Virus record (IMG/VR): IMGVR_UViG_3300022751_000018
Location: 1 to 64,000 of that record
DNA from: a virus
DNA length: 64,000 bases
Strand: one strand, 5' to 3'
A model generated the notes under the pieces. It ran no database searches. It saw nothing but the letters and a program-made list of their open reading frames with translations, and had not been told where the DNA came from. Below are positions 1,415-9,438 of this stretch, one piece after another (position 1 is the first letter of the stretch; each line of letters opens with the position of its first letter). A program made the position numbers and the translations under genes.

Positions 1415-2596
1415 TTATATCCCATAGTAACGCGTTGAATTCACAGGCCGTTTACACATAGCACCCATAGTCGCATTAGAATAACGTTCTTCGAAACCAT
1501 CAGTCTTTTGTTGAACGCCAAGCAATAGAAGCTTAGTAGGTCCGCCTGCTAACCAAGTTTCGCCGCCATCTGTTGAGTACGGATCGTTTTCGGTCGATAC
1601 CATATCTCCATATAGATAGAATACGTTAGAGTTTGAGTAAGCAAGTTGCAACTGAGGAGCGTCAACTACGCGGCACATAGGATAATCCTTCTCTAACCAT
1701 GTATTAACTGTGTAACCAAATTCAGTTGTTTTACTTAGCCAATCGATACAATTCGTTGGAACCGCTAACGTGGTTGGGGTAGTTTTTGGATTTACATTAC
1801 CCTGAGTTTGATTTCTAAGCGCAACAAAAGCAGTCAATAGATCTTGAATAATTTCTAAGGCTGTTTTTGATGCCCAAGTTGTAGAGCTTCCTGCGCCTGC
1901 TGGAACGATAGTGTATGCGCTTAATTCCGGCGCGTTTAGAAAACCATACGTTCCACCTGCGCCGGATATGAATCCATTGAACGCAATTGAATTCCGAGCG
2001 ATCTCTAAACCTTGGGCAACCGCTTTTCGTTTCCAGCCAGCATCATCAAGCATACCTGCGGCAGCTCGTTTAGACTCTAGTTGAGATACAGTTAAACCCA
2101 TTTGCAAACGAATAATCGTACGAGGATTGTATGAAGGCTGATAACTTGCCTGTACATTATCAGTATTATCTAAATAAACCACCGGATTAGCCGTCATTTC
2201 GATTACAGACTGAACAACTTGTTGATCTTCCCACCGACCCAATGTTGCATATCCCATCAGCTTATCAGCTTGCCTGATCGATGTTAAAACCGCAACTTGA
2301 CCAGTAGGCCAATATTGCAAGAACTGGATTGGCGTGGGAACTGAAGGTGTATTCTGCGTTACCTGAAGAGTAACGGCATCAAAAACAACTGCCCCACGTT
2401 GATTTTTAGCCGCTTCATATACCTGGCTTAAAGGATGTTCATCATAAAAAATACCCATGCTTCTTAAGGACTGGATATTTTCTTTTGTGCCGTTAAAGTT
2501 TTCAACGCTTTTTCCTTTTCTTGCATCGAAGTCTCTAGCATGAATGACAGACTGGATTGCTGTCATGTTCTGTCTTGAATAGTTCATATTTTTCAC
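1415..2596 (-). CDS. major capsid protein (putative, HK97-like size)
   Basis: 393 aa. Last large gene of the terminase-portal-MuF-scaffold order. Confidence 0.55.
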   Translation of the reverse strand: MKNMNYSRQNMTAIQSVIHARDFDARKGKSVENFNGTKENIQSLRSMGIFYDEHPLSQVYEAAKNQRGAVVFDAVTLQVTQNTPSVPTPIQFLQYWPTGQVAVLTSIRQADKLMGYATLGRWEDQQVVQSVIEMTANPVVYLDNTDNVQASYQPSYNPRTIIRLQMGLTVSQLESKRAAAGMLDDAGWKRKAVAQGLEIARNSIAFNGFISGAGGTYGFLNAPELSAYTIVPAGAGSSTTWASKTALEIIQDLLTAFVALRNQTQGNVNPKTTPTTLAVPTNCIDWLSKTTEFGYTVNTWLEKDYPMCRVVDAPQLQLAYSNSNVFYLYGDMVSTENDPYSTDGGETWLAGGPTKLLLLGVQQKTDGFEERYSNATMGAMCKRPVNSTRYYGI

Positions 2597-3141: not shown

Positions 3142-4368
3142 TTAAATTTCCCCTTTTTTGTATGCTGAAAGAAAGTCATAGGCTTCAACCTTTGGCTTAT
3201 CTGCTTTATCCATCGCCATAACAACTGCTTGTGGCGCTTCTTTTCCTGTTAAAAAACCTTTTAAATAGGTGACTTCATCCCCAATTGCGCATTCAATGGT
3301 ATGACCCATTTCCTTTAGTTTTTTAACGCCATATTGAGCCATTTCATTTAAAGTTAAAATATCTTTATTTGGAATAGTAATATGATCGGCAAGACTTTTT
3401 GCAAAATTTTCTCTTTCATTATTTCTAAGAAGGAATTCTTTTTCATCCATAGCTTTAGCGCCAGATTTTTCCTCATCCTTTTTATCTTCTTTGGATTCTT
3501 TTTCTGACTCGTCTTTAGCGGGAATTTTTTTATCTGCTTCACTTTCGCTATCAGCAATTGCAGCCGCTTTTGCTTCTTTCATTGCACGCACATCTTCACG
3601 TATTTCAGTAATCGCATCCATACAATCTTGAAGAGTAACAGACTTGTCTTTTGACTCATCTTTTTTTGATTCTTCATCTTTCATAGGAGCGTCTTTAGAC
3701 TCATCGTCTTTCTTGTATTCGTTATCAGCCATTTCAATAACCGCCTCTTGATTTGTTTCCGCTTGATCAAGAACCGCTACCAACGCACCCGATCGACCAT
3801 TGTTTACGATTGCAATATGATTGCCTGCGATGTTTTCTTGCACCACTTCGTATTCCTGTCCATTATAAACACCGTTTTGTATTTTGTACAAGCAGGTTGC
3901 TCCAATAGATATTTGTTTTTTTCCTTTTTCCATTTCTTTATTCATGTGGCCTGAAAAAAACATTAAATTAGATTTTAACATTCCGTCAGTTTCATCATAG
4001 AAAACCTCTTGCCCAGTAGCTCCATGTACTATTTTTTCTTCTGGCAAAATTCCATCTTTATTACTCACTGATAAGTAAGCGTGTCCATCAATAATTGGTT
4101 TTATTTTAAAAGAATCTAAAGTGTCACTTGCAGATAATTGCGCTGGAGATCTAAAAACTTTATACATTTTATTAGGATCAATTCCTTCTAAAACATTTCC
4201 ATCTGAATCAATAATGTTTTTCCCGAGATATTCTAATATCCCAGATCGCGCGATAGGGTTTGCTTTAATTTCGAAAAAACCATCTTTATTATAGTTTCTT
4301 TTGCTTTCTGAAATATCAAAAGCTAAATGAATTTCAGATAATTCATTTTGTAATTCAATCGTCGCCAT
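3142..4368 (-). CDS. putative scaffolding / prohead-processing protein with an acidic KDE-rich C-terminal half
   Basis: 408 aa. Long low-complexity acidic stretch (KDDESKDAPMKDEESKKDESKDKS...) typical of scaffold proteins. Position between the MuF-like and capsid genes. Confidence 0.4.
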   Translation of the reverse strand: MATIELQNELSEIHLAFDISESKRNYNKDGFFEIKANPIARSGILEYLGKNIIDSDGNVLEGIDPNKMYKVFRSPAQLSASDTLDSFKIKPIIDGHAYLSVSNKDGILPEEKIVHGATGQEVFYDETDGMLKSNLMFFSGHMNKEMEKGKKQISIGATCLYKIQNGVYNGQEYEVVQENIAGNHIAIVNNGRSGALVAVLDQAETNQEAVIEMADNEYKKDDESKDAPMKDEESKKDESKDKSVTLQDCMDAITEIREDVRAMKEAKAAAIADSESEADKKIPAKDESEKESKEDKKDEEKSGAKAMDEKEFLLRNNERENFAKSLADHITIPNKDILTLNEMAQYGVKKLKEMGHTIECAIGDEVTYLKGFLTGKEAPQAVVMAMDKADKPKVEAYDFLSAYKKGEI

Positions 4369-4384
4369 CTAAATAATCCTCATA

Positions 4385-6265
4385 TTAAAAACGAAATATA
4401 GCTCGCATTTTGCATTTACAATTCTTGCTTGTTATTTCTGTAGATGATACATTGAACCATCCATTATAACTTTCCATGGTGTAAACATGGCCTTCAAATA
4501 TACTACTGACTTTCTTCTCAACGCGAAACAATTTTTGGATGAGGGAATGACTTTGAGAGAGTTTTGCAAAATTAATAAAGTAGGACAAAGTCATTTGACA
4601 AAAGCCCTTAGGAATAGAATTAATTATATTTTGCCAAGCACTATTAAAATCAAAGCTGTGAATGCTAATGGCTCCAAAATTGTCGCAAGATATAATAAAG
4701 GAGAAAGCGTCCAATCTATCTCTATTTTCTATAAAGTTAGTCGGCAAAAAATTAATAGTATCCTTCAGGGGGAAGGAATTATTCTCAGGAATGGAAGTGT
4801 CGCTAGTAAAATCAGAATGTCTAAACTCACCATTGACGAAAGAAAACTTTTGAGCAAATCCGCCAGAAGAGCCAAGCTCAACAATCTTGGACATAAAGCC
4901 AGGAATAAAATTATTGATGATCAAATCGGAAAAGGTGAGGAAGAGCTTTTCAATGTCCTCGTCGCCGATGGATTTATCCCAGAAAGGCAGGCAATTATCG
5001 GTGATTATTGTATCGACATCGACCTCGGGCACATCGCCATGGAAGTTAAATTTAGAGCCAATATCAGTAAATTTGGAGCCGGAAGCCTCGATAGAATAAA
5101 AAAGATCAGCGAAAGTGGTCGTGATTTTTGTTTTTTTGTTATCAATGATCCTGTTGTCATAAGCTTGGCAAGAGACGAGATAATCTCCCTCATTCACGTT
5201 ATTGGCAGGAATCCAGCCCCTCAAGGTCAATATTGGGTGGTTAGGTGTACACTCGATAATCTCTCCGCCATTAAAACTTATGGAGACCATATCCCCTCTA
5301 TACATGTATCTCCAGAGGTTACGACATCCATTAGCAAGAGATACTATAGTTGATCCTGTAAAACAATTTGCTGGAAATCCAGGTAAACCTCGATCTTTAG
5401 AAGGAACTCCTAACGCGGCTTGCTCAGATAATAGATTGTCGAATGAAAATATCTCGCCGTCAATTTTTATATGCGAATGCCTCGGGTATCTTGATTCATA
5501 GGTATAAACCCATTCAAACTCTTTTATTCCTGCATTCATCAATCCTTGCTTGTTAATTGCAGTGTAAGCTTTTCTGGTTTGATCGTATGCTATTCTTGCC
5601 GCTCTACTGCTTACTAGTAAGTTATATTTTCCTAATATTCCAGTCGATTTTTTTTCTGAATGATTAATTATTTTTTCAGAATCTGGTATTAGTGATTTTA
5701 TTCCATCTCCTCCTTCGCTAATGGCGCGCATAACGGATCCAGAAACATCCGTAAAATATTTTTCTTGCAATGAATTTATATAAGTTATGTTTTCTTCAAT
5801 AATTGACTTTGAAATGTCATCAGTTCCTTTTTCCAACACTTCCTTTTTAATTGAAAGTCCGTCTTTCATTTTTCCGAAACTAAAGTTCAAGTTTACTAGG
5901 CTAATATTTTTTGTCTTACGCAACATTTCTTTTGCAATCAATTTTGCTCTTTTATTAAATATATATGAAAATTTAGCTATAAGTGAATTAATCAAAATCC
6001 TAGCTTGAGAGGATATGCTTTTATCGGAATCGTCCTCATCAATAGCAGAAAGTTTATTTTGTTTATTTAAAAATGATTCGAATGCTTTAGATGAAAATAA
6101 TTTTGATAGCTCAAGTGTTGTAGTAAATGTCATGTCATTAACAAGAATCATTATTTGATTATGATAATTTCTTTGAAGTGCAGCATTGTAATTAAGGGTG
6201 TGCCCCTTAATTACATTTTTATCACGATTAAGTAATCGTTTATTCTTCGTAGTCATTTGAATCAT
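4385..6265 (-). CDS. minor head protein, Mu F / SPP1 gp7 family, containing an intein
   Basis: N-extein carries YPRHSHIKIDGEIF, the MuF-like R..H..DG motif. The C-terminus carries SKNCKCK, matching the conserved NCRC end of the family. The frame stays open through an inserted Hint-domain-like segment. The start overlaps the portal gene, as is usual. Confidence 0.6.
   Translation of the reverse strand: MIQMTTKNKRLLNRDKNVIKGHTLNYNAALQRNYHNQIMILVNDMTFTTTLELSKLFSSKAFESFLNKQNKLSAIDEDDSDKSISSQARILINSLIAKFSYIFNKRAKLIAKEMLRKTKNISLVNLNFSFGKMKDGLSIKKEVLEKGTDDISKSIIEENITYINSLQEKYFTDVSGSVMRAISEGGDGIKSLIPDSEKIINHSEKKSTGILGKYNLLVSSRAARIAYDQTRKAYTAINKQGLMNAGIKEFEWVYTYESRYPRHSHIKIDGEIFSFDNLLSEQAALGVPSKDRGLPGFPANCFTGSTIVSLANGCRNLWRYMYRGDMVSISFNGGEIIECTPNHPILTLRGWIPANNVNEGDYLVSCQAYDNRIIDNKKTKITTTFADLFYSIEASGSKFTDIGSKFNFHGDVPEVDVDTIITDNCLPFWDKSIGDEDIEKLFLTFSDLIINNFIPGFMSKIVELGSSGGFAQKFSFVNGEFRHSDFTSDTSIPENNSFPLKDTINFLPTNFIENRDRLDAFSFIISCDNFGAISIHSFDFNSAWQNIINSIPKGFCQMTLSYFINFAKLSQSHSLIQKLFRVEKKVSSIFEGHVYTMESYNGWFNVSSTEITSKNCKCKMRAIFRF
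4487..5353 (+). CDS. antisense ORF nested in the intein, codon-aligned with it. Its status as a gene is uncertain.
   Basis: 288-aa ORF exactly complementary codon-for-codon to intein codons 304-593. Contains HTH-like segments (LREFCKINKVGQSHLTKAL, SISIFYKVSRQKINSIL) and a DUF559/Vsr-like PD-(D/E)XK-like stretch (EELFNVLVADGFIPERQAIIGDYCIDIDLGHIAMEVK). May still be a chance open frame. Confidence 0.15.
   Translation: MAFKYTTDFLLNAKQFLDEGMTLREFCKINKVGQSHLTKALRNRINYILPSTIKIKAVNANGSKIVARYNKGESVQSISIFYKVSRQKINSILQGEGIILRNGSVASKIRMSKLTIDERKLLSKSARRAKLNNLGHKARNKIIDDQIGKGEEELFNVLVADGFIPERQAIIGDYCIDIDLGHIAMEVKFRANISKFGAGSLDRIKKISESGRDFCFFVINDPVVISLARDEIISLIHVIGRNPAPQGQYWVVRCTLDNLSAIKTYGDHIPSIHVSPEVTTSISKRYYS
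4620..5365 (-). other. intein inserted in the MuF-like head protein (about 241-249 aa; C-terminal boundary uncertain)
   Basis: Block A CFTGSTIVSLANG begins at codon 301 (nt 5363-5365). Block B is ECTPNHPILT (the T..H...T motif). Candidate terminal Asn followed by Ser at FDFN|S (4643-4645) or IIN|S (4619-4621). Extein motifs resume afterwards. Confidence 0.5.
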
Positions 6266-7844
6266 TAGACTCCTCTTCAGGCTTTTCTATTATCTTATCC
6301 TCATCAATTCCAGAATAGTTTGATTCCTCATTATGAGCTATTCTTGCTCGCTCCTCTTGAGGGTCAATTGCGCCGGACATAATCAATGTTTGCCCTGTTC
6401 TAGCATCAATCTCGTTAATTTCTGCGACTTCTTTTTGTGTAACAGAATCTAGTTTCTTCCAAGATATTTTGCATGTGAAATCTTTTTTATATTTTGGAGT
6501 TATAATAGATTTCATAATAAGCTCATGATGACGATGAACAATTGGAGTAACTTGCTTCAGCAAAGTTTCAAGACTAAGTCTATATGCCTTCTCTTCTGCA
6601 TCACCAGAATTAAAGCCCTTGGGAGATGTTTCAAGCAGCCGAGATGCAATAACGTTTGAGCCTGCTGCAACTAATTGCAATAGCATCATCTGAACTTCTA
6701 CAACATCGGTAAGAGATGTATCAAACTGCTCCATTCTGTCATCAAGATCCAAGTACTTGGTCCCAGTATTTCTTCGGTTTGCTATGTAATCCTTAGCCTT
6801 CTGTGTAAAATTGTCCTGATTTTGTAATGCTGCCATCATATTAGTAAATACAACGTCCGTTCGCTTAGTGTTTACCAGCTCTACTGCGTCACCTGCTGCG
6901 TGCATTGCATTGTAGACTAACTCTGCTATCAACTGAGGAATAGGAATCCCCCCATATTGGTACATTGGCTTAATCATATCAGGAAGATTTTCCGTTCTAA
7001 GAACGACGCAATGGCTTCGGTGCATGTAAACACCGCCAGGAACATTCCACCAAGTAGGGTTTAAATAATCTTTACTAGCGGGATTACTTGCTGAATTAAA
7101 ATCAAATTCTGGAGTCATATAATAAGGATCAACTTGTGATATCCCCTTATATGATCCAGGTGTTATAGCATCTATATTAAATGGATTCTTATAAAATTCT
7201 TTATTTTTTTCTGCGCTTCCCAAATCAACTACAAAATAAACCACTCTAATTCCGAATACTTTATTTTTATAAATAGCATCCTTTAGATTCTCATGAAGAT
7301 TGAATTGATTATCTAAATCAACCATCTCTTCTATTATTTTTTTATCTACTTTTTTACCGTCATTAACAAGGATGTCAAACCAGTTTCTGATAGCATCCTC
7401 CGCTGGAACTAAGCAGGCTTTATTAATTAACCAATGCTGGCAAAGTATGGCGCATTGCGCGTAGCCAATAAATCTTGTTTGCGCATAATAAGCAAAAATA
7501 TCATTATTATAAAAACCCCATCCACTATTTGCATAGCTTGTATTGTCGCAGCTATCCATTGCAAATCCTGTCTGAGGCTTTGATTTGAATGTAGCTTCAA
7601 TATTTTTCTTTAGAGTTTTATCTATTGAATTATCGCAAATATCCTTCCAAAAAACTTTTAACTCATCTGTTTTTTTTGTTTTGTCTTCGATAGGCTCAAT
7701 TTTTTTTTCGTAAGTTCTATCAAGCGCTTCTTTGTAGAAATCAACTTTATCCGATAATACCGTTAAGCTATTTTTTAGCTCAGTTATTAAAGGATCTTCT
7801 TTCTTCTTAAATTTATCTTTAACGTATGTTACCAATCCGCGCAC
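6240..7844 (-). CDS. portal protein
   Basis: 534 aa, directly downstream of the large terminase gene and overlapping it. Size and position are typical of portals. Confidence 0.6.
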   Translation of the reverse strand: MRGLVTYVKDKFKKKEDPLITELKNSLTVLSDKVDFYKEALDRTYEKKIEPIEDKTKKTDELKVFWKDICDNSIDKTLKKNIEATFKSKPQTGFAMDSCDNTSYANSGWGFYNNDIFAYYAQTRFIGYAQCAILCQHWLINKACLVPAEDAIRNWFDILVNDGKKVDKKIIEEMVDLDNQFNLHENLKDAIYKNKVFGIRVVYFVVDLGSAEKNKEFYKNPFNIDAITPGSYKGISQVDPYYMTPEFDFNSASNPASKDYLNPTWWNVPGGVYMHRSHCVVLRTENLPDMIKPMYQYGGIPIPQLIAELVYNAMHAAGDAVELVNTKRTDVVFTNMMAALQNQDNFTQKAKDYIANRRNTGTKYLDLDDRMEQFDTSLTDVVEVQMMLLQLVAAGSNVIASRLLETSPKGFNSGDAEEKAYRLSLETLLKQVTPIVHRHHELIMKSIITPKYKKDFTCKISWKKLDSVTQKEVAEINEIDARTGQTLIMSGAIDPQEERARIAHNEESNYSGIDEDKIIEKPEEESNDSNDYEE

Positions 7845-9438
7845 TGTGTAGACCTCTTCTTTTATCTTGCTTAGCGAAACAAATTACGGCCGAATCGGCC
7901 CGATTTGGCGATTTTGTTCCATCCGGCTTTTTATCTACCATAATCTTTTTATCATTATCTTTCACAAATCTTGCCTGAGATAGCTCCATTCTTAATTGTG
8001 ATAAACCATCTATTTTACTTGAGATGGAAATAATTTCAGAAGGATCGCAGGGCTTATTAAATTTTATCCATCTGTATGTTAACTGAAAACGTCTTCTAAA
8101 TTCCATCCAGGCTTGCGCTTTTCTGTTTGCAAAATAATCCTTATTGGTAGGTTGGTTCGCTCCCTCTTCATAATATCCTCTATCGCAATATGGGTTTCCA
8201 TCTGGATCAATAACTTTTCCACTTCCGAGAAATGCAAAAACAGGTATTGATCTAATTCTATCTGATCTTGCTTGCGCGTTAAGAACCCTAGCATCTCCTC
8301 TTAATGCTCCGCCAAGACCTACTGCATCATAAGAGATTTCTTCATAATCAAAATCGCGACAAATTTGCATGGATTTTTCTAAGGTTATCATTAGGTCAAT
8401 TCCTTTCCCTGACCATTCATTTTGATATTCAAGCAAAAATGACTGCCTTCCAGTAAAGCAATTTTTATCTGCACCTTGATCGCTGACATCCAGTCCAGCC
8501 AATCTTGGCCCTGAAGGGGTTAATCCTAGTTTTATATGAGCATCAATACACTCATCAATCCATTCCTTAGGGATAATAATTCCCTCAATAGATCCGTAGT
8601 AATCCATCTCATACTCTTGAGCAAAACGTATTAGGCACTCCGCCTCTTCTTTTTTCTTATCGAACCATTCTTGAGTTTTCCGTGGGTCTGAATACCACGG
8701 GAAGCTAAATACCTCAATTTTTCCGCTGAAGCGTTTCCGAGCGAATAAATTGGATGGGCCGCAGGGGGTTGATAACGTTATTCGGCAGTTGGTAGATGCC
8801 ATGAGTGCAGCATCGACTAGTTCTTGATGAGGGTGGAACGCGCTTTCATCGTCCGCGTACATAGAGAATCGGTCTCCCCTGCCCATGTTGTCTCCTGACT
8901 CTCCTGATATATACGCCTGAGTCATCGGGAAATAAATACGCATATCGGCGCTGTGCTTGCGCTCATTCCAATCTCCTGCGAACTCTTTTGGTAAGTGTAT
9001 GATGAAGCGTCGAGCTTTAAACAACAGGGCGCGAGGCATCTTGGCATCGACGTATTCTTTTTTTCGAGAGCCAAAGCCGAAATGGAAGCCCTTGTTGAAT
9101 AAACACTTTGCAACCGCATACGCCACAGTTAATTCACTAATTCCAACATCACGGCTCTTCTCGACAAGAAGACTCTTTCTCTCTCTGAAGCATTCCTCGA
9201 ACTTTTCAATAAGCTCACGCTGACGGGGAAACAAGATGAAAGGCACCATGGCTGGCAGGCCACGCTCAGGATTACGTGGGTCATACGTGGTTCCCCAGTC
9301 ATTGATAAAATCAGCGGGATGCGTCTTGTAGTACTTCCATAGCTTTCTGAACTTATCTTTATCGCGGCGTAACTCTTGCAGTCGCTCAATGCGCTGCTTG
9401 AATATTTCTGCATAAAGTGGCTTTTTAAAGTCGAACAT
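7819..9438 (-). CDS. terL: terminase large subunit
   Basis: 539 aa. ATPase-type motif KSRDVGISELT. Acidic Walker-B-like MYADDESAF. C-terminal nuclease-like region (LAGLDVSDQGADKN). Confidence 0.75.
   Translation of the reverse strand: MFDFKKPLYAEIFKQRIERLQELRRDKDKFRKLWKYYKTHPADFINDWGTTYDPRNPERGLPAMVPFILFPRQRELIEKFEECFRERKSLLVEKSRDVGISELTVAYAVAKCLFNKGFHFGFGSRKKEYVDAKMPRALLFKARRFIIHLPKEFAGDWNERKHSADMRIYFPMTQAYISGESGDNMGRGDRFSMYADDESAFHPHQELVDAALMASTNCRITLSTPCGPSNLFARKRFSGKIEVFSFPWYSDPRKTQEWFDKKKEEAECLIRFAQEYEMDYYGSIEGIIIPKEWIDECIDAHIKLGLTPSGPRLAGLDVSDQGADKNCFTGRQSFLLEYQNEWSGKGIDLMITLEKSMQICRDFDYEEISYDAVGLGGALRGDARVLNAQARSDRIRSIPVFAFLGSGKVIDPDGNPYCDRGYYEEGANQPTNKDYFANRKAQAWMEFRRRFQLTYRWIKFNKPCDPSEIISISSKIDGLSQLRMELSQARFVKDNDKKIMVDKKPDGTKSPNRADSAVICFAKQDKRRGLHSARIGNIR

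Follow-up and report, generated by a model that had tools for sequence, protein, structure and literature searches.

A minus-strand intein in a phage MuF-like head gene and a codon-aligned antisense gene of homing-endonuclease type

Why should two long open reading frames (ORFs) occupy opposite strands of the same codons in an AT-rich viral genome, and does the second of them encode anything? The question is raised by IMG/VR virus record IMGVR_UViG_3300022751_000018, whose positions 1 to 64,000 were analysed here (this whole 64,000-nucleotide stretch is referred to as the window). In the window, a minus-strand gene for a MuF/SPP1 gp7-like minor head (head morphogenesis) protein of 626 residues (4385..6265, from the ORF listing) carries an intein, and a plus-strand ORF of 288 codons with an ATG start (4487..5353) runs antisense to that intein. 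Both frames are kept open under selection and the plus frame encodes a conserved protein; the plus-strand ORF is a real gene, of a homing-endonuclease type that combines tandem helix-turn-helix (HTH) modules with a predicted Vsr-like PD-(D/E)XK nuclease domain. The explanation that we consider highly probable is a mobile two-strand intein, in which a minus-strand intein and a plus-strand homing endonuclease are contained in a single 945-bp insert.

Two open frames in one codon register

The codon lower bounds of the plus-strand and minus-strand ORFs are both 2 mod 3, so the triplets of the two ORFs coincide exactly, and the plus-strand ORF corresponds to codons 305-593 of the minus-strand gene. 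An earlier reading of this DNA (hereafter the original prediction) had described the ORF as codon-aligned with the intein, which the ORF coordinates and register bear out; of the minus codons that it gave (304-593), the end was correct and the start one codon off. In the plus frame, none of the 22 leucine and 25 serine codons is TTA, CTA or TCA (the reverse complements of the stop codons), and the same is true of the 18 leucine and 30 serine codons of the minus frame over the same span. The avoidance of these codons and the 18 leucines had been correctly noted before, while the serine count given at that time, about 35, was too high. Elsewhere in the window, TTA and CTA make up 37% and 12% of leucine codons and TCA makes up 31% of serine codons, with the three together representing 6.05% of all codons. 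Given the amino-acid sequence and the codon usage of the window, the plus frame would lack all three with a probability of 3e-11 and the minus frame with a probability of 8e-11, and the corresponding value calculated from overall codon frequency is 1.5e-8. The 33 other window ORFs of at least 150 residues were used as controls, and the longest codon-aligned antisense-open run found in them was 111 codons (typically 30-80), compared to 301 codons in the target gene, the remainder of which contains 28 TTA, CTA or TCA codons. In addition, GC skew and AT skew switch sign at 4501-5250, as expected if the selected coding strand in this region is the plus strand. Chance is excluded as the cause of the antisense opening, and the earlier judgement that it was unlikely to be accidental stands.

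The GC content of the intein/endonuclease region (4501..5500) is 0.37-0.41, compared to 0.27-0.31 in the flanking extein DNA. This raised value fits either a foreign origin or the avoidance of six AT-rich triplets (TAA, TAG, TGA, TTA, CTA and TCA) in one register.

The intein, the antisense protein and their relatives

The limits of the insertion are given by intein-free homologues. The head morphogenesis protein of Leptolyngbya phage Lbo-JY16 and the Mu gpF-like protein of Vibrio phage BT-1011 are collinear with the window protein, and both are continuous over the junction (...GxPGxxIN-C(R/K)C...). Because these homologues are collinear across the junction, the window protein can be seen to contain a clean 315-residue insertion between N300 and C616. 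The N-extein (residues 1-300, ending in ...GLPGFPAN; 5366..6265, minus strand) is followed by a class-1-type intein of 315 residues (residues 301-615 of the gene product, 945 bp; 4421..5365, minus strand), which was identified from the insertion alignment, the Pfam family Intein_splicing and profile matches, and then by a short C-extein (CKCKMRAIFRF and the stop codon; 4385..4420, minus strand) that bears the conserved MuF 'N-CRC' motif split by the intein. The splicing residues are all present, namely Cys1 (CFTGSTIV...), block B TPNH, block F/G ...GHVYTMESYNGWFNVSSTEITSKN, the terminal asparagine N615 and the +1 cysteine C616, and T40-x-x-H43 (TPNH) is invariant in the intein alignment. Intein_splicing matches residues 315-384 of the 626-residue product (E 2.6e-7), and a profile of 19 such inteins matches solely mini-intein (HINT) structures (Mtu RecA, Mja KlbA, Pho RadA and NrdJ-1, E ~1e-5), which places the HINT core at intein residues ~1-75 and ~282-315. 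Profile alignment with RecA mini-intein residues 56-97 and KlbA residues 76-134 locates the N-lobe, with blocks A and B, at 5141..5365 on the minus strand, and the KlbA alignment (profile positions 282-304) locates the C-lobe, with blocks F and G, at 4421..4522 on the same strand.

Two further minus-strand segments lie between the lobes. The intein 'spacer' (gene residues 434-573; 4547..4966) is antisense to the HTH region of the plus-strand product and is unconserved in sequence and stop-free, and an extra conserved segment (intein residues ~85-126; 4988..5113) is not part of the canonical HINT core and is situated exactly opposite the catalytic motif of the nuclease. No endonuclease domain was detectable in the minus-frame product, either in a Pfam scan, which returned Intein_splicing and Phage_Mu_F only, or in the comparison of the intein profile with structures, where only mini-inteins were matched; the earlier suggestion that this intein lacks an endonuclease of its own is in keeping with these results. 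From its residues, the element appears to be a contiguous read-through intein of class 1, and splicing is predicted.

The relatives of the plus-strand product form a large family. A word-indexed protein search returned a single homologue (P0001, 288 residues, 49% identity, gapless), and the family was revealed only by an exhaustive profile search of cluster representatives, which yielded 1,621 matches at E<=1e-3, of which 539 passed a threshold of E<=1e-10 and 35 one of E<=1e-30. Family members are mostly 280-300 residues long and match end to end. No product identical to that of the plus-strand ORF is on record in the assembly index, and the window protein alone gave sub-threshold HTH matches in Pfam and none among PDB sequences. 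Six residues (G72, R101, E151, Q168, D177 and E186) are invariant in an alignment of 61 sequences, within the motif GxGE...RQ...Y.IDI...AVE.K, and the window copy is full length and retains all six of them.

An AlphaFold (AF2) model built from the 61-sequence alignment was predicted with high confidence (pLDDT 93.0, pTM 0.77); a model built from two sequences only had a pLDDT of 53 and was discarded. The model consists of two HTH units, a long linker helix and an alpha/beta nuclease domain, and its best PDB match by Foldseek is 3r3p (I-Bth0305I), so that the ORF product is predicted to have a Vsr-like nuclease fold. The two HTH modules (residues 23-45 and 62-95; 4553..4771, plus strand), delimited by model helices and profile matches, are the presumed DNA-recognition region, and the nuclease domain comprises residues 148-288 (4928..5350, plus strand). 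Within the latter, the invariant residues E151, Q168, D177 and E186 are located at 4937..5050 (plus strand) together with K188, which is the majority residue at its position but not invariant. The window motif I-D177-I...E186-V-K188 is carried by model strands at 174-180 and 183-189, and has the canonical PD-(D/E)XK arrangement D...(D/E)-x-K. Compared to PDB, the family profile matches the tandem-HTH structure 2lvs (E 3e-5), the DUF559 structure 3hrl (E 9e-4) and I-Bth0305I (3r3p, E 0.075), and it also matches resolvase and transposase HTH domains (Sleeping Beauty PAI). Among family members, Pfam matches include HTH_23, HTH_7 and HTH_28, as well as MTES_1575 (12 of the 61 sequences) and DUF559 (3 of 61). 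Both of the domains proposed in the original prediction, namely two HTH segments and a DUF559/Vsr-type core, are recovered in this way, with the core placed at residues 151-188.

The two-frame arrangement is also conserved among relatives. From the family of hundreds of clusters, 35 related loci were checked for context, and both frames are open in all 35, with one recent nonsense allele of the endonuclease (see below). The original prediction would have been refuted by orthologous inteins with a broken antisense frame, and the opposite was found. The non-redundant full-length lineages number 29, with a median plus-protein identity of 31% and contig GC contents of 0.36-0.65. The closest homologue, P0001, differs from the window protein without insertions or deletions (59% nucleotide identity), the antisense intein frame is open on its contig, and four IMG/VR contigs are identical to that contig in the element region. 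When the intein was used as the query, three further MuF proteins with 32-34% identity were found (in Tara Oceans marine metagenome, Logan and JGI assemblies), and all three carry a homologous ORF in the codon-aligned antisense frame. Furthermore, viral contigs were scanned with a hand-built degenerate DNA motif of the catalytic core (GxGE-x15-RQ-x5-YxVD-x8-ExK) that requires neither frame to be open. The scan returned 38 stretches, all of which are family members (hidden Markov model E 1e-60 to 1e-106), and all 38 lie antisense within an open frame of 560-690 codons, save where the contig end interrupts; the product of this enclosing frame is MuF-like and has its intein at the N|C(R/K)C site. 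Across 28 lineages, TTA, CTA and TCA are found in the minus frame at 0 of 8,020 codons in the overlap, compared to 295 of 8,491 codons elsewhere in the same ORFs.

Two of the related loci are shorter variants. L010 (Logan SRR28985146) and L011 (JGI 3300041751) have inteins of 235 and 279 residues and antisense endonucleases of 208 and 218 residues, respectively, each without one HTH module, and L011 has EIH in place of EVK at the catalytic motif.

Selection along the overlap and competing explanations

The start and stop of the endonuclease are fixed within the splicing blocks of the intein. The endonuclease ATG is the antisense of the histidine codon CAT of block F, GHVY(T/N), 20-22 residues before the C-terminal asparagine of the intein (in the window, it lies opposite a conserved histidine 22 residues before the intein end), and the HINT C-lobe overlaps the first ~12 endonuclease codons, including the start codon. 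The endonuclease stop codon lies opposite intein residue 5 in the window, as it does in most lineages, where this residue is usually a serine encoded by TCA (opposite TGA). As a result of these positions, the endonuclease ORF covers ~92% of the intein in the window and in the 35 loci, and takes in HINT blocks A and B together with the beginning of block F.

Conservation is unevenly divided between the two frames along this overlap. When the window is compared with P0001, it is the plus frame that shows the better conservation at plus codons 1-156, with plus position 3 most variable, and the minus frame that does so at plus codons 229-288. Across the 29 lineages, plus codons 21-160 (4547-4966) have mean BLOSUM62 scores of 0.8 to 2.0 in the plus frame and -0.1 to 0.7 in the minus frame, and plus position 3 is the most variable; at plus codons 241-288 (5207-5350), the corresponding scores are 0.5 to 1.8 and 1.8 to 3.5, and plus position 1 is the most variable. 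The spacer region has a mean score of 0.18 in the minus frame compared to 1.41 in the plus frame. Observed conservation was compared to a null that kept one protein unchanged, drew its synonymous codons anew at the GC content of each lineage, and recorded how well the other frame was conserved. At codons 21-160 the minus frame is almost unconstrained (observed 0.18, null -0.02), and the small excess is an estimate of the effect of shared ancestry. At codons 1-20, 161-240 and 241-288, both frames exceed the null by 0.6-2.2 units. Plus codons 21-160 constrain the endonuclease only, and codons 1-20 and 161-288 constrain both proteins.

This division coincides with the domains of the two proteins. 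The HTH half of the endonuclease lies opposite the spacer of ~140 residues, which the intein needs to be stop-free only, and the nuclease domain lies opposite the HINT N-lobe and the extra conserved segment. The latter has the motif TF..LF...F.FHGD..D..VD.I..D..L, in which D118 and L126 are invariant and F89, F108 and G110 are near-invariant, and its minus-frame conservation (observed 1.27, null 0.29) is beyond what the plus protein imposes. Judging from the genetic code and from those alignment columns that vary little or not at all, D118 and G110 of the minus-frame protein appear to be kept by fixed synonymous choices in the plus frame, namely an unvarying C at the third position of codon 176 and GCC for Ala184.

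In the mobile two-strand intein that we favour, the class-1-type intein at the ...N|C(R/K)C motif would be translated with the host protein and splice itself out, and the ~140 central residues of the intein (gene residues 434-573) would be merely the stop-free antisense read-through of the endonuclease gene. The plus strand would encode a free-standing-type homing endonuclease of 288 residues, made from its own antisense message, which, when phages co-infect, may cut MuF alleles that lack the intein, either at the insertion site or close to it; recombinational repair would then copy the entire two-strand unit into the cut allele. We infer in this way that the plus-strand ORF is transcribed and translated, that its product is an active nuclease with such a target, that the intein splices and that the unit is mobile at present. 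The proposal that an antisense endonuclease serves an intein without one of its own had already been put forward in the original prediction, and each element of it that was tested gave support.

Several observations weigh against this interpretation. The histidine general base of the EDxHD enzyme I-Bth0305I is not conserved in the family, and as a consequence the chemistry may differ and activity cannot be assumed. A promoter scan upstream of 4487 found 4 sites compared to 4.1 expected by chance, and a promoter and terminator scan of 4200-5600 showed no excess over shuffled sequences. The Shine-Dalgarno-like GGTG located 5 nt 5' of the ATG (4478..4481, plus strand) has counterparts in nearly all of 31 lineages, where GGTG, GAGG or AGGT is present within ten bases before the ATG, but this motif is only suggestive because the same bases encode conserved intein residues, making it inseparable from the amino-acid constraint on the intein. 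Viral contigs yielded no close relatives of the window N-extein, and no close intein-free relative of this phage was found. Finally, the synonymous-redraw null ignores shared ancestry, for which the baseline excess is ~0.2 BLOSUM units.

There are several potential alternatives to a mobile unit. The plus-strand ORF may descend from a homing endonuclease and no longer function in homing, having become inactive or begun to decay after fixation of the intein, or having been co-opted as an HTH regulator or for another nuclease role. It is consistent with such a history that one related locus (L039) has a nonsense endonuclease allele with an intact intein frame, indicating that loss does occur, and that the published survey of actinobacteriophage inteins discussed below reports several VSR-type intein groups that are seemingly vertically inherited; the missing EDxHD histidine and the unproductive promoter scan point the same way. 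However, an inactive gene would gain stops fast, since many stop mutations in the plus frame are synonymous in the intein frame, and yet the window copy is full length and keeps G72, R101, E151, Q168, D177 and E186, and the plus frame is under strong purifying selection in the 29 lineages. We therefore regard loss or change of function as unlikely.

A different possibility is that the host gene is fractured, with the middle of the minus frame left unread and two split-intein products joined by trans-splicing, as in the loci described by Dassa et al. (2009). Vsr-like endonuclease genes are indeed known between split-intein halves, and the central 140 residues of the intein are unconserved as protein. 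Nevertheless, at all 35 loci the minus frame passes through the insert without a stop. For the AT-rich loci among them this is highly improbable by chance, and such a pattern is expected only if ribosomes must read through. Moreover, fractured genes have an endonuclease in the same orientation as the host gene and a host gene in two ORFs, neither of which is seen here. This arrangement is very improbable, and a fractured gene or split intein was rejected as a candidate on account of the single uninterrupted 626-codon ORF and the antisense endonuclease, which are found likewise in all related loci. Still less credence can be given to a non-coding frame that is open by chance, as a codon-usage by-product of the intein. 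It is well established that, of the alternative frames, the codon-aligned antisense one is generally the most open, and the window protein alone has no significant sequence match in Pfam or PDB. Against this stand the probabilities of ~1e-8 to 1e-11 in an AT-rich window and the control maximum of 111 codons, the hundreds of full-length homologues, the plus-frame substitutions of coding type with position 3 most variable, and the confidently predicted Vsr-like fold. Family size, substitution pattern and predicted structure rule out a chance ORF, and the chance or relic frame that had been offered as an alternative in the earlier reading is rejected, with both frames open at every one of the 35 loci examined.

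A broader interpretation of the mobile unit, for and against which we see roughly equal odds, is that it has a single, old origin and that both of its strands are coding almost end to end, with the same codons specifying folded parts of two proteins. This interpretation is based on the position of the nuclease domain opposite the HINT N-lobe and the extra segment, and on the start and stop fixed inside splicing blocks. The family itself is large, comprising hundreds of 50%-identity clusters from phages of Proteobacteria and Actinobacteria and from marine metagenomes, and it is associated with the MuF N|CRC site in every examined case. If true, the dual-coding unit would be among the largest and deepest natural cases of long antisense dual coding, and it is apparently not covered by the published description.

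Distribution, known systems and genomic setting

Of the 50,697 phage records searched, 59 contain the endonuclease, while N-extein homologues are found in 399 records, indicating that the element is sporadic; alleles without the intein exist in the form of the intein-free homologues. The carriers include Salmonella Jerseyvirus and other Salmonella phages, phages of Pseudomonas, Klebsiella, Acinetobacter, Gordonia, Edwardsiella and Vibrio, and the Haemophilus/Aggregatibacter phages Aaphi23 and S1249. Wherever the gene over the endonuclease is named, it is a 'head', 'minor head' or 'head morphogenesis' gene, and it is on the opposite strand in 3 of the 3 records inspected. The antisense ORF itself is nearly always unannotated, the head protein gene alone being called, as in Aaphi23 ORF42, Edwardsiella phage MSW-3, Salmonella phages LSPA1 and BPS11Q3, and gp5 of Gordonia phage Malisha, and in Salmonella phage PK1 it is annotated as a 'hypothetical protein' overlapping the head morphogenesis gene.

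Recent change in the element can be followed in a single pair of near-identical IMG/VR contigs, L039 (3300010356_002707) and L040 (3300003279_000015), over 1,701 aligned bases. Over ~1 kb of intein and endonuclease there are only 2 differences between them, compared to 17 in ~0.7 kb of N-extein. One of the 2 is a CAG to TAG nonsense change in the endonuclease frame of L039, which is a silent CTG to CTA (leucine) change in the intein frame; the endonuclease is shortened to 175 residues, and the MuF-intein frame of 567 codons is still open. The stop could be a natural endonuclease knock-out or a sequencing error. In this one pair, the pattern is as a homing cycle predicts, with recent transfer or gene conversion and occasional loss of the endonuclease.

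Arrangements of this kind have been described before. Actinobacteriophage inteins with an endonuclease outside the intein frame include anti-sense LAGLIDADG and anti-sense VSR-like types (Gosselin, Arsenault & Gogarten, bioRxiv 10.1101/2025.01.02.630785), and in a supplementary table of the same preprint the entry 'minor capsid, MuF-like, class 1, VSR -1 ORF' is given for Malisha gp5, among others. In a tblastn search, the window ORF matches the Malisha gp5 region over 95% of its length with 25% identity (E 2e-9). The window element resembles these inteins in its MuF-like host protein, its class-1-type intein, its codon-aligned -1 antisense ORF and its predicted Vsr-like fold, and differs in belonging to an unrelated phage or prophage of 36% GC that is not an actinobacteriophage. 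In addition, the ORFs are described as typically lying outside the splicing domain (bioRxiv 10.1101/2025.01.02.630785), whereas the window ORF includes splicing blocks. The two-strand kind is already described in that preprint, and the window element is a new, distant and well-supported member of it; what is added here is the breadth of the family, its association with the MuF N|CRC site (exclusive so far), the near-coextensive overlap that includes splicing blocks, and the map of constraint on the two frames.

The older anti-sense LAGLIDADG inteins (Gorbalenya 1998; Gogarten et al. 2002, both as cited in bioRxiv 10.1101/2025.01.02.630785), represented by Synechocystis DnaX and a Chloroflexus SpoVR-like protein, likewise have an endonuclease gene opposite a contiguous read-through intein, but differ in nuclease fold (LAGLIDADG rather than Vsr-like) and in host genes. 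Compared to the mini-inteins Mtu RecA, Mja KlbA and Pho RadA, the N-lobe (~16-70) and C-lobe (~282-304) of the window intein align at E ~1e-5, and Cys1, TxxH, the terminal asparagine and the +1 cysteine are all shared; in contrast, the window intein has ~200 residues between its lobes, which contain no endonuclease fold of their own, and its penultimate residue is lysine instead of histidine.

Sense-oriented relatives of the nuclease are also known. I-Bth0305I is encoded in sense orientation within a group I intron (Taylor et al. 2011, PMC3239194), and Vsr-like relatives of it lie in sense orientation between split-intein halves (Dassa et al. 2009, PMC2677866). The defining feature of the EDxHD family, to which I-Bth0305I belongs, is the conservation of Vsr catalytic residues (Taylor et al. 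2011, PMC3239194); D196, H213 and D222 are among the active-site residues superposed for I-Bth0305I. The window family shares with this enzyme N-terminal tandem HTH/NUMOD modules and a C-terminal Vsr-like domain, but the sequence similarity is marginal (the profile E of 0.075 given above), His213 and Asp222 have no invariant counterpart in the columns of the 61-sequence alignment, and the family keeps D177-x8-E186-x-K188 in the classical PD-(D/E)XK arrangement. Strict membership of EDxHD was rejected because the histidine general base is not conserved, and the family was filed as Vsr-like.

The window element confirms in an unrelated AT-rich phage that contiguous inteins can depend on an endonuclease encoded on the opposite strand, an arrangement that is conserved, common and routinely overlooked in annotation. 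Active homing elements will be under-counted wherever a survey places inteins of this sort among the 'mini' or 'decaying' ones. The family is a natural, deeply diverged data set for the co-evolution of two proteins on shared codons, and because many of the mutations that create a stop in one frame are silent in the other, as L039 shows, each gene can be disrupted with the other protein left unaltered. The unconstrained spacer of ~140 residues also gives a measure of the extent of unconserved polypeptide that is apparently tolerated by a splicing-competent intein.

The host gene belongs to a series of phage head genes on the minus strand. On either side of it are the portal gene (6240..7844) and a scaffold-like gene (3142..4368), and the series also includes the major capsid gene (1415..2596) and the large terminase gene (7819..9438). 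Pfam Phage_Mu_F matches residues 174-301 of the 626-residue product (29.7 bits, with a cutoff of 29.6; E 1.1e-6) over profile positions 3-107 of 112, and the match stops at the intein junction. Matches to the product were also obtained with PHROG 15127 'head protein' (E 3e-55) and with PHROG 324 'head morphogenesis' (E 1e-34). In the sense of IPR006528 / PF04233 the host gene encodes a MuF-like protein, which aligns collinearly with proteins annotated as Mu gpF-like. Among sequenced phages, the large terminase has its best matches in Burkholderia phage Bups phi1, Elizabethkingia phage EKP1 and Burkholderia phage Magia, with only 47-49% identity, and a megablast search of 4300-6300 against phage genomes returned zero matches; taken together, these results indicate that the window comes from an undescribed phage or prophage. 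The MuF-like gene overlaps the portal gene by 26 nt (6240..6265), and an overlap of the same length is found between the portal and terminase genes (7819..7844); such overlaps in a late operon probably reflect tight packing and ordinary translational coupling.

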